Origin: an uncultured Desulfarculaceae bacterium
Lineage (GTDB): Bacteria > Desulfobacterota > Desulfocorpusculales > Desulfocorpusculum
DNA length: 64,000 nucleotides
Assembly (NCBI GenBank): GCA_964514105.1
Contig: CAZEPJ010000001.1
Coordinates: 34,448 to 98,447, forward strand
Reading direction: 5' to 3'
A program made the translations under genes and the position numbers. Each line of letters opens with the position of its first letter. The stretch's first letter is position 1. The notes under the pieces were generated by a model, which was not told the origin of the DNA, did not search any database, and was given only the letters and a program-made list of their open reading frames with translations. This document shows, piece by piece, positions 2,371 to 14,148 of this stretch.

Positions 2371-3075
2371 CTACGGGCTCGGGGACGGCGGCTCCTGGAT
2401 GGCCTCAACGATATCCGTGGCCATGTCGTCCAGGACGACCTCCGCCTCCTGGGATGTCAGGCCTCCATAGACAACCCCTTTCTTCGTCGCCACCGCCACG
2501 GCCTTGTCCCACTTCCTGATGAACTTCCTGTCCGCCTTGTCCAGCCTCCTGGTCAGCTTGTCGGGTTTGGGCTTGTGAACGTCCTGGCTGTACGCCTTGA
2601 GCAGGTCCAAGGCCTTCTGCCCTGCGACCTTGAGCAGGTGGTCCGCCAGGTTTCGTGCCACGGGATCCGCGAGGTCGAGCAGGTCGTCTCCGCCGCCCGC
2701 CGCCCCATCCGGCCCCAAGACCGCCCCGTCGAGGATTTCGTCGGCAGCCCCTTCGTCAGTCCCGTTCCCCCCGATCAACGCCACCATATCGGCCAGTTCG
2801 GCGGCGGAGTTGCAGCCGGTCCCCGGGTCGGCGTTGTTCCACCGAACCGCCAGCTGGTCGTATGCCGTCTGAATGCATGCCGAGGGATCGCCCGCGGGGT
2901 CGCCCTTGAGGGCGTGAGCCCAGCAGAAAACGACCTTCTTGGCGTAGATGCTCAGGGCGTTGAGCCTTCGGCTCTGGCATGTGGCGTCGGGGTCGGGCGC
3001 GGCCATGGACGGACCGGCAGCCAGGGCCAGGACGCCAAGGACGGACGCCCATCCAAAAGCGAAAGCGCGCTTCAT
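2371..3075 (-). CDS. Secreted hypothetical protein (Sec signal peptide, Cys-containing, Asp/Gly/Ala-rich)
   Basis: The start was reset to the internal ATG at 3075, which is preceded by a perfect AAGGAGG RBS. The N-terminus MKRAFAFGWASVLGVLALAAGPSMAAP is a classic signal peptide. The upstream extension of the table ORF 2371..3303 has no RBS and overlaps the leader structure. Confidence 0.6.
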   Translation of the reverse strand: MKRAFAFGWASVLGVLALAAGPSMAAPDPDATCQSRRLNALSIYAKKVVFCWAHALKGDPAGDPSACIQTAYDQLAVRWNNADPGTGCNSAAELADMVALIGGNGTDEGAADEILDGAVLGPDGAAGGGDDLLDLADPVARNLADHLLKVAGQKALDLLKAYSQDVHKPKPDKLTRRLDKADRKFIRKWDKAVAVATKKGVVYGGLTSQEAEVVLDDMATDIVEAIQEPPSPSP

Positions 3076-3239
3076 GTCTATTCCCTCCTTGGTCTTGCGG
3101 CCGAGAAACGTCACCTCGATCCGTTGGGTGTCCGCCTCCCCGACGGCCGGGGCCTTCACGTTGCGGTTCGCCGTCCGGGTGATGCCCTCTTCGGGATCGA
3201 TCCCAAGAGGCCTTGCCGAGGGAAGATGCGTGCCTTCAT

Positions 3240-3340
3240 CCGCCGGGCAGCCACGCTGCCTGGCCCCACGGCGTGGAACCAGGCTGACAGCCTTGCGCCC
3301 CACCCTCCCGAGATGTTTGCCCTTCAGCGAAACGCCCTGC
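3240..3340 (-). promoter_or_regulatory. Candidate c-di-GMP-I (GEMM-like) riboswitch aptamer in the 5' leader of the secreted-protein gene
   Basis: The minus-strand leader reads GCUGAAGGGCAAACAUCUCGGGAGGGUGGGGCGCAAGGCUGUCAGCCUGGUUCCACGCCGUGGGGCCAGGCAGC. It shares AGGGCAAAC, a GNRA-capped hairpin and GGG(A/G)CGCAA(A/G)GC with the Vibrio Vc2 aptamer (CAGGGCAAACCAUUCGAAAGAGUGGGACGCAAAGCC). A P1-like GCUG...CAGC closure and a second hairpin (GCCUGG...CCAGGC) follow, about 170-260 nt upstream of the ATG. A candidate -10 TATTAT lies at 3347-3352. Confidence 0.4.
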
Positions 3341-3465
3341 CATTGGATAATACCAGAAGACCGGAAGATAGGAAACGGATCAACGCATGACTTTGAAATC
3401 CTTCACACTTCAAGCCCGGGAAGAGGCATGGATGGGCAGCCGGGGGCCCCCCCGGACCCCGAAGG

Positions 3466-4110
3466 TCAAAGGGGCTGGCCGCCGGCCTCGCGGACGATGC
3501 CCTTGAGATATGCCACAGCCTCTTCAGCCAGACAGGTCGAATCGACGGATACGGACAGCTCGTGGTTGTGCCCTAGGGCGCTGTTGGTGAAGTTATGACT
3601 TCCCACGATGAGGTGACGGCGGTCTACAACCGTGGCCTTCATGTGGGACCTTCGATCGGGTCGATCCCAATGGACCGTGACCCCGGCCTTCTTCAGCCGC
3701 TCGGCGCTCTTCTTGTTGTCTCTGGCCAGTTCCGAGCGCGGGTCCTCCGGCAATTCCAGGAGGAGCTGAACCCGAACGCCCCGCTTGTGGGCCCGGATCA
3801 GTTCCCGGATCAGGCCATCTGTGGTGCTTTGGCGATGGCCTGCGGCCTTGAACGTGAACATGCCGATCCAGATCTCCTTCTTGGCCCTCTTGACGAGGTT
3901 GGTCAGGGCCGGGGAGAGCCGTTCGTCGGGGAGAAACTGCACCGTGGCCGGGGGGCAGGGGGTGGAAGCGTACACCAAATCCCGGCACGTGCATGACAGG
4001 AGGAGCACGACCGCAAACAGGGCCGCCTCGGTACAGCGGATCCATTGTCTCGATGCCGGAAGAGGGGCCATCCCCGACACATCTTCCGGCATCTCTGTCC
4101 GCTGCATCAC
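3466..4110 (-). CDS. Phospholipase D/Nuc-like single-HKD-domain protein, probable lipoprotein or secreted endonuclease
   Basis: HKD motif [20 protein letters not shown] (HxKx4Dx6GSxN). The N-terminal hydrophobic segment ends in an LLSC lipobox-like motif. The GTG/ATG start overlaps the dnaK stop (GTGATG), indicating translational coupling. Confidence 0.7.
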
Positions 4111-13686: not shown

Positions 13687-14148
13687 ATGGCCAGGAAAGA
13701 CAAAGAGAAGGACCAGGACGTGAGGGATGGAGGGATCAGGGCACCTGCCATGCGCCCATCCATGAACCTTCCCATGAAGTATCTGGTCATCAGCGGCCGC
13801 GATGAGATGAAGATCTCGCGCAGCATCGACGGCAGGGTCGAGGATCTCTCGCTCACCGGCCTGGTCTTTCAGACGGCCTCCATGCGGGTGGACAATCTCC
13901 ACCTCTCGTACGACGAGTCCCCGGTGGTCCGCAACAAGCTCACCATGGAGATCGATCTGCCCGGCAAGCGGAAGATCACCGCCATGGGGGAAGTCTCCTG
14001 GTACGAGCGCTCCTTCGTGGCCAAGGAGCAAATCTATCACATCGGGGTGGTGTTCCGGGAGATCAGTCCTGAAGACCGAGAGGCCCTCAAGGAATACCTG
14101 GTGGCCGTCAAGAGGGCCGTGGCCGCCGTCAGCCTCGATGATCTATAA
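13687..14148 (+). CDS. PilZ domain protein (c-di-GMP receptor-like)
   Basis: RSIDGR (RxxxR) followed by DLSLTGL (DxSxxG) motifs, with a PilZ-like C-terminal region. Confidence 0.55.
   Translation: MARKDKEKDQDVRDGGIRAPAMRPSMNLPMKYLVISGRDEMKISRSIDGRVEDLSLTGLVFQTASMRVDNLHLSYDESPVVRNKLTMEIDLPGKRKITAMGEVSWYERSFVAKEQIYHIGVVFREISPEDREALKEYLVAVKRAVAAVSLDDL

Follow-up and report, generated by a model that had tools for sequence, protein, structure and literature searches.

Riboswitches of the c-di-GMP-I class (GEMM-I; Rfam family RF01051, exemplified by Vc2 and Vc1 of Vibrio cholerae), which respond to cyclic diguanylate (c-di-GMP) and are among the most abundant and best-studied of all riboswitches, combine a helix P1, a P2 hairpin with a GNRA loop and a P3 hairpin with an AG bulge in a three-way layout, with conserved GGCAAAC and G-CGCAA-GC cores. 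In Vc2, G20, A47, A48, C92 and C44, along with the other positions that we follow below, are ligand-contacting or highly conserved (PMC4744006, PMC3764141; the role of G20 is described in both, and the roles of C44, A47 and A48 in PMC3764141), and rare members of the class sense c-AMP-GMP instead (PMC7266159). Here, we analysed a candidate of this kind in a 64,000-nucleotide stretch of DNA (contig CAZEPJ010000001.1, positions 34,448 to 98,447; hereafter the window) from an uncultured Desulfarculaceae bacterium. The element, at 3331–3240 of the window (beginning UUCGCUGAAGGGCAAACAUCUCGGGAGGGUGGGGCGCAAGGCUGUCAGCC and ending GGCAGCGUGGCUGCCCGGCGG), is a candidate GEMM-I-like aptamer with a P1/P2/P3 three-way junction, identified through a sub-threshold match to a family of the c-di-GMP-I clan and located in the 5′ leader of a gene for a secreted protein; it and its leader are read on the minus strand throughout. 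We consider it probable that the element is a homologue of GEMM-I aptamers, and we put at roughly 0.4 the probability that it is a diverged GEMM-I aptamer serving as a working c-di-GMP-responsive translational switch, probably of low affinity. These and the other estimates below are judgements drawn from the Rfam E value, the control loci, the leader position and how rarely genuine members score so low.

The resemblance was assessed first against curated models. Across the whole window, no Rfam family reached its gathering score, but a permissive scan matched 3330–3242 to the full RF03167 model (c-di-GMP-I-GGC; model positions 1–80) with 28.8 bits, corresponding to E = 8.5 × 10−5 locally and E = 0.01 for the whole window against all 4,227 families. 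This was the best sub-threshold match in the window, all others having E ≥ 1 and belonging to eukaryotic microRNA, small nucleolar RNA or long non-coding RNA families; alongside it, a weaker match to another family of the c-di-GMP-I clan was suppressed. The initial annotation, which had proposed a c-di-GMP-I riboswitch here, named RF01051 and RF01786 (c-di-GMP-II) as the models to search, and that search came back negative at the curated level: neither gave a gathering-score match, and RF01786 gave none at E ≤ 10 on either strand of 3000–3520.

Because the site had been picked out by its two core strings, control loci were obtained by scanning genome and metagenome collections for the pattern GGGCAAAC-N10-20-GGGGCGCAAGGC. 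Of the approximately 90 loci returned, most were either chance matches scattered across genomes or a segment of purA coding sequence; none came from the species of the window, and only four (L009, L080, L086 and L089) looked GEMM-like. Fourteen controls carrying both core strings, including the eight most GEMM-like by a custom model, were compared with the Rfam models, and none (0 of 14) had a c-di-GMP-clan match at E ≤ 10. Because controls with identical strings receive no clan match, the core strings alone do not account for the GEMM-I resemblance, which extends beyond them. The custom covariance model (R1, built from four relatives with the window left out and used for ranking only) gave the window's element 36.5 bits, the highest score among approximately 86 string-bearing loci outside its training set; the best controls reached 30.6 and 30.3 bits, and the median lay near 19. 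R1 is, however, a crude model, dominated by the invariant core strings, that lost the distal P3 pairs and set the window's P3 in a non-GEMM register. A MAFFT alignment of the five elements misaligned P3, and only two of the relatives are solid.

Position by position, the element reads as follows. The two GEMM-I core strings described in the initial annotation are indeed on the minus strand (AGGGCAAAC at 3323–3315 and GGGGCGCAAGGC at 3301–3290), as is the P1-like closure, in which UCGCUG (3330–3325) pairs with CGGCGG (3245–3240) through 6 bp including two G-U pairs, extended to 7 bp in the minimum free energy (MFE) structure of the isolated domain. J1/2 and the start of P2 (3324–3319) read A A G G20 G21 C22, with the G20 equivalent at 3321 in the cmscan alignment. 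P2 (3315–3300) is the hairpin CAUCUC-GGGA-GGGUGG, so the GGGA loop of the proposed GNRA-capped P2 is present (3309–3306), but the cap requires that adjacent A×G and U×U mismatches be tolerated in the GEMM register. The core G42 G43 C44 G45 C46 A47 A48 follows at 3299–3293 (C44 at 3297, A47 at 3294 and A48 at 3293), with G in place of A43. The second, long hairpin that had also been proposed corresponds to P3 and spans 3292–3249; its proximal part pairs GGCU with GGCU and UCA with CGU (with U×U and A×C mismatches), its distal part is a perfect 12-bp hairpin (3284–3273 with 3269–3258), and its AG bulge lies at 3257–3256, with the G83 equivalent at 3256. J3/1 (GCC, 3248–3246), which holds the C92 equivalent at 3247, is one nucleotide longer than the consensus.

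By the cmscan alignment, the element thus keeps G20, C22, A23, A25, the G and A of the GNRA loop, G42, C44, G45, A47, A48, the AG bulge and C92. The equivalents of the pocket nucleotides (G3321, A3294, A3293 and C3247) are present by alignment position, which speaks to their presence only, and C3297 and G3256 occupy the positions of the interhelical C44-G83 pair (the C of the P2 internal loop and the G of the P3 AG bulge, respectively). Among 41 highly conserved model positions, 30 are kept, and of the 16 stem pairs that lie outside the core, 12 are canonical in the fixed register (binomial P = 0.006). Deviations found only in the window fall at conserved positions 17, 23, 43, 45, 46 and 56, in P2 and P3; those at 17, 45, 46 and 56 are in non-canonical pairs, and position 23 is the free N of the GNRA loop.

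Compared with RF01051, the element shares the three-way layout, both conserved cores, the alignment positions of G20/A47/A48/C92 and C44/G83, a place in the 5′ untranslated region of a secreted-protein gene and an organism with a PilZ gene, but it differs in two P2 and two P3 mismatches, in A43→G and A49→G, in the additional J3/1 nucleotide and in having no recognisable tetraloop receptor, terminator or Shine–Dalgarno (SD) sequence overlapping P1. Like RF03167, it has GC-rich stems, a GcUGCc 3′ core and a short P3 that lacks the CUAA/UAUG receptor extension, but its score is half the gathering score, and where the RF03167 consensus has G47 (CGCGAAgCc, compared with CGCAAAgCc in RF01051) the window has A3294 (CGCAAGGC). 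Weinberg and colleagues (PNAS, 2017) are said to have defined the GGC variant class by altered pocket nucleotides, its ligand being unidentified. Because G47 is absent and the pocket is of the canonical G20/A47/C92 type, the element should not, as judged from its sequence, be filed as a GGC variant despite its best model score, and for the same canonical pocket the expected ligand is c-di-GMP. Variants that sense c-AMP-GMP (GEMM-Ib) have A at position 20 in place of G, whereas the window retains G3321.

Among the GEMM-like loci, two metagenomic relatives provide the closest comparison. One (L086; JAABUN010002125.1, 14775–14864) passes the Rfam threshold (60.7 bits against 59), and the other (L089; Ga0126314_10008099, 2299–2374) comes near it (54.1 bits, E = 1.9 × 10−10). 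Both have AGGGCAAAC and GGGGCGCAAGGC identical to those of the window and the same G43/A47/G49 arrangement; L086 also has the window's AG bulge and GCUGCC 3′ core, where L089 has GG and GCCGCU. Over 68 model-aligned positions, identity to the window is 42 for L086 and 40 for L089, and these relatives keep 35 and 32, respectively, of the 41 highly conserved positions. Because L086 passes and L089 nearly passes, G43 and G49 are compatible with accepted members. Neither relative, however, has any mismatch in P2 or P3, and most of their helices have probabilities near 1; L089 further differs in its compact platform, in which the SD sequence overlaps the P1 3′ strand, 8 nucleotides before a GTG start. 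The L089 element (2299–2383) precedes a gene for a 346-amino-acid secreted glycoside-hydrolase-like protein with a Tat-like signal. A Phycisphaerae metagenome-assembled contig (L009) carries two GEMM-I-like elements approximately 1.7 kb apart (1–48 and 1695–1776, both on the minus strand), one with a canonical GGGACGCAAAGC core, cut off by the end of the locus and scoring 33.3 bits for half the model, and the other with a G43/G49 core and an RF01051 score of 31.5 bits, just under 35. As a separate observation, the purA coding segment that dominated the pattern scan (…GKRILFEGAQG…; L005 at 3343–3376, L008, L016–L018 and approximately 40 more) carries GGGCAAAC and GGGGCGCAAGGC approximately 14 nucleotides apart in Rhodobacteraceae and other taxa, with no Rfam model match in those tested, and is a trap for string-based riboswitch searches.

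The genomic setting is that of a leader. The element lies in sense orientation in the intergenic space that separates a PLD-like gene from the gene for the secreted protein, and it begins 17 nucleotides downstream of TGGTATTAT (3355–3347), an extended −10 promoter-like motif that is the sole TGNTATWAT match on either strand of the window (expected count 0.10, observed 1). The surrounding patch is the most AT-rich of the region (GC content 0.42, compared with 0.66 for the window). As read from this motif, TGGTATTAT is probably a promoter, and its position would place the transcription start near 3340, approximately 10 nucleotides ahead of P1, also a probable assignment; such a distance is usual for riboswitches. 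Of the riboswitch span 3240–3385 in the initial annotation, 3331–3240 is thus aptamer-like, and 3332–3385 is promoter-like DNA outside it. The upstream neighbour (3466–4110, minus strand, ending at 3466) encodes a PLD-like protein (PLDc_2, PF13091) with an N-terminal hydrophobic segment; it is adjoined by dnaK, grpE and lon, and short GC-rich hairpins without a U-tract follow it (approximately 3467–3440).

Downstream, the candidate regulated gene (3075–2371) encodes a 234-amino-acid secreted, all-helical, four-cysteine orphan protein with no Pfam family. Its ATG (3075–3073) is preceded at 8 nucleotides by the ribosome-binding site AAGGAGG and lies 165 nucleotides from the aptamer-like part, in line with the earlier description of a leader some 170 nucleotides upstream of a signal-peptide gene. 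Among 5.8 × 10^9 proteins, three homologues were found, one of which is from the same strain with identical DNA (L003; this strain is present in Logan run SRR12686701); the family members are at 2371–3075 (minus strand) of the window, L001 (6001–6702) and L002 (427–1392). All three begin MKR or MKK followed by a signal peptide, with conservation starting after it and four invariant cysteines, and this agreement of the N termini supports the start at 3075. A coding reading of the element itself, which follows an automatic gene call in a public assembly (P0001, 310 amino acids, from a GTG at 3303 to 2371; 418–1350 in L003), was rejected, as it is over-extended by 76 residues relative to the homologues; because they confirm the start at 3075, the element is non-coding. 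A structure model of the secreted protein is all-helical (predicted local distance difference test score 86.8, predicted template modelling score 0.82) and had no significant fold match in the PDB (best E = 0.18). Secreted proteins are typical GEMM-I targets, and this one fits the usual gene repertoire, without being diagnostic of it. Vc1, for example, regulates gbpA (PMC4744006). The PilZ-domain gene noted in the initial annotation (13687–14148, plus strand) was borne out by a PF07238 match of 31.2 bits against a cut-off of 22.5; it suggests that the organism uses c-di-GMP and offers weak context for a riboswitch. No GGDEF, EAL or HD-GYP domain was found among ten large open reading frames that were examined.

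How such an aptamer might act on translation is suggested by three segments of the leader whose helices are mutually exclusive. The SD region (AAGGAGGGAA, 3090–3081; SD sequence GGAGGGAA, 3087–3081) can pair with UUCCCUC (3224–3218) of an anti-SD segment (CAUCUUCCCUC, 3228–3218). The P2 3′ strand (GGGAGGGUG, 3309–3301) mimics the SD sequence and can form 9 bp with CAUCUUCCC (3228–3220), which overlaps the anti-SD. Predicted duplex energies are −25.1 kcal/mol for the anti-SD with the SD region and −20.7 kcal/mol for the anti-SD with the P2 mimic, and the mimic helix is the MFE structure of a transcript ending at 3215. We propose, speculatively, a kinetically controlled translational OFF switch, in which transcription would start near 3340 from the extended −10 promoter and c-di-GMP, bound at the P1/P2/P3 junction, would hold the P2 3′ strand GGGAGGGUG inside the aptamer. 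In the ligand-bound state, the anti-SD (3228–3218) would then be free to capture the emerging SD sequence (3087–3081), keeping translation low, whereas in the ligand-free state the weak P2 would open and its 3′ strand would pair with the anti-SD, leaving the SD sequence accessible. This model would account for the weakness of P2. No intrinsic terminator was predicted on the minus strand of the leader. The CCCCG-N5-CGGGG hairpin that had been suggested as the expression platform exists as sequence (3151–3137), but it was rejected in that role, having no U-tract and no terminator call and lying outside the predicted leader fold. Elsewhere in the leader, a near-perfect palindromic hairpin (CCUCUUGGGAUCGAUCCCGAAGAGG, 3217–3193) lies midway; in co-transcriptional snapshots, all of the P2 region (AUCUCGGGAGG) is a possible alternative partner of its 5′ half, CCUCUUGGGAU.

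A substantial set of observations weighs against a working switch. The RF03167 score of 28.8 bits compares with a gathering score of 59, and any match to RF01051, whose gathering score is 35, must lie below 28.8 bits. Of the 18 pairs in the GEMM register, 4 are non-canonical (the adjacent A×G and U×U in P2, and U×U and A×C in proximal P3), leaving 4 of 6 canonical pairs in P2 and 8 of 10 in P3; ensemble probabilities in the window are at most 0.14 for P2 and 0 for P3a and P3b, and forcing the GEMM register costs 10.9 kcal/mol relative to the MFE structure. For comparison, every P2 and P3 pair of L086 has an ensemble probability of 0.67–1.0 (all but one at least 0.93) with a forcing penalty of 3.4 kcal/mol, and in L089 the P2, P3a and P3c pairs reach 0.78–1.0, P3b is at 0 and the penalty is 9.3 kcal/mol. 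The MFE structure of the isolated domain keeps the three-way junction, with P2 slipped by one nucleotide (5 bp and a CGGGA pentaloop), but it also slips P3 by 2–3 nucleotides (GGC.GUCA / UGGC.GCC), pairing the C92 equivalent; with slightly longer flanks the MFE structure is not GEMM-like, and in longer contexts P1 is lost. Nor is the leader fold significantly stable (z = −1.06, and z = −1.57 for the post-aptamer leader, relative to shuffled sequences). Position 49, the conserved A-minor adenine of J2/3, is G in the window (G3292), as in L086 and L089. In the Rfam structure its partner is position 90, giving a G-U pair in the window and in L086 and a G-C pair in L089.

The expression platform and the comparative record also count against a working switch. 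The predicted probability of SD:anti-SD pairing is at least 0.97 both with the aptamer enforced and without it, so that no coupling between aptamer and SD sequence is visible at equilibrium; the 165 nucleotides from aptamer to ATG contrast with the compact platform of L089; and the promoter is a candidate assigned from its motif only. Two homologous genes (52–53% identity) have no clan match in the approximately 430–750 nucleotides available upstream. Because the only other copy is identical and these two genes are without the element, there is no support from covariation, and the five elements, from unrelated taxa, do not supply any. A penalty of 10 kcal/mol, taken at face value, would weaken the apparent dissociation constant more than 10^6-fold, bearing in mind that nearest-neighbour energies omit tertiary and ligand contacts; given the poor pairing of P2 and proximal P3, c-di-GMP, if bound at all, is expected from these predictions to be bound much more weakly than by model GEMM-I aptamers. 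The proposal of a c-di-GMP-I riboswitch therefore holds up in its similarity above chance, its kept pocket nucleotides and its leader position, and falls short in gathering score and in the folding of P2 and proximal P3; below the curated thresholds and with P2/P3 integrity in doubt, the element does not qualify as a confirmed member of either RF01051 or RF03167. By the refuting conditions set in the initial annotation, a lack of gathering-score matches and of a covariation-supported fold, the proposal fails, on the second of them by default.

Much of this evidence could also be read as the signature of a riboswitch relic, that is, a GEMM-I descendant in which stem-breaking changes in P2 and P3b have abolished the c-di-GMP response, so that output of the secreted protein would depend on the promoter together with a standing SD:anti-SD helix, or on another factor that acts on this helix. 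We regard this as somewhat unlikely, although it draws on the same homology evidence as a working switch: the window-only deviations fall in P2 and P3 (those at 17, 45, 46 and 56 in non-canonical pairs), the ensemble contains almost none of the GEMM-register helices, with a penalty of approximately 10 kcal/mol, the SD sequence is sequestered whatever the state of the aptamer and the gene family is otherwise without such a leader. Neutral decay, however, would not be expected to leave all pocket and tertiary-contact nucleotides intact, P1 is good at 6–7 bp and P2 could be weak because its 3′ strand has a second function, as part of the expression platform. The energies, moreover, omit tertiary and ligand terms and also penalise the accepted member L089 by 9.3 kcal/mol, and Vc1 binds poorly in vitro yet regulates (PMC4744006). 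Less likely is a chance resemblance, in which a GC-rich structured leader happens to contain GEMM-like strings and has no link to c-di-GMP riboswitches. To its credit are the failure of any Rfam family to reach its gathering score, a window E value of 0.01 that becomes approximately 1 for a whole genome against all families, core-string controls that reach 30 bits in R1 (6 below the window, whose P3 that model aligned in a non-GEMM register), the chance recurrence of the core strings in purA coding sequence across dozens of genomes, a regional MFE structure that is not the GEMM fold and the absence of conservation evidence. Chance would nonetheless have to produce a match 100-fold better than the next in the window, on the sense strand of an intergenic 5′ leader and right after the sole extended −10 motif, where none of the 14 controls was detected by Rfam, with the nucleotides of ligand contacts and tertiary pairs all correctly ordered and spaced and with the proportion of canonical stem pairs given above (12 of 16, P = 0.006).

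Two further readings keep the GEMM-I ancestry and change what the RNA does. An unrecognised GEMM-I subclass, perhaps with L086, L089, L009 and L080, in which A49→G is characteristic, the ligand would select between two registers of one three-way junction and the P2 3′ strand would be an SD mimic, is in our estimate very unlikely, although P2 and P3 of this copy both have stable slipped registers; RNAs of such a subclass might have altered affinity or specificity. We give slightly less weight to a GEMM-I descendant that has changed in ligand specificity or in how it acts (for example as a G43/G49 subgroup or a register-slip switch) and is no longer a plain c-di-GMP sensor. The top-scoring model is that of the variant family RF03167 and not RF01051, A49→G recurs in the window, L086, L089, L009 and L080, and both P2 and P3 have well-paired slipped alternatives, but the G20/A47/C92 pocket is canonical, the G47 that defines RF03167 is absent, the pairing of G49 with position 90 (U or C) fits a neutral change and the subgroup was set by our own search pattern, so that co-occurrence of G43 and G49 within it is uninformative. 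A diverged, low-affinity c-di-GMP switch thus remains the reading that we favour and, if real, it is an atypically weak addition to a very well known class, with no sign of a new kind of system.

Given how well this class is studied, the general interest of the element is modest, but a functional element here would indicate that genuine family members may score well below Rfam thresholds. If a relic, it would be a small example of riboswitch decay. If functional, it would represent a GEMM-I aptamer that works despite a weak P2 and P3 and a long leader in which the SD sequence is sequestered. Synthesis of the orphan secreted protein, with its helical fold and four cysteines, would then be tied to c-di-GMP levels, providing a first functional clue for this three-member family and pointing to surface, biofilm or environmental roles.

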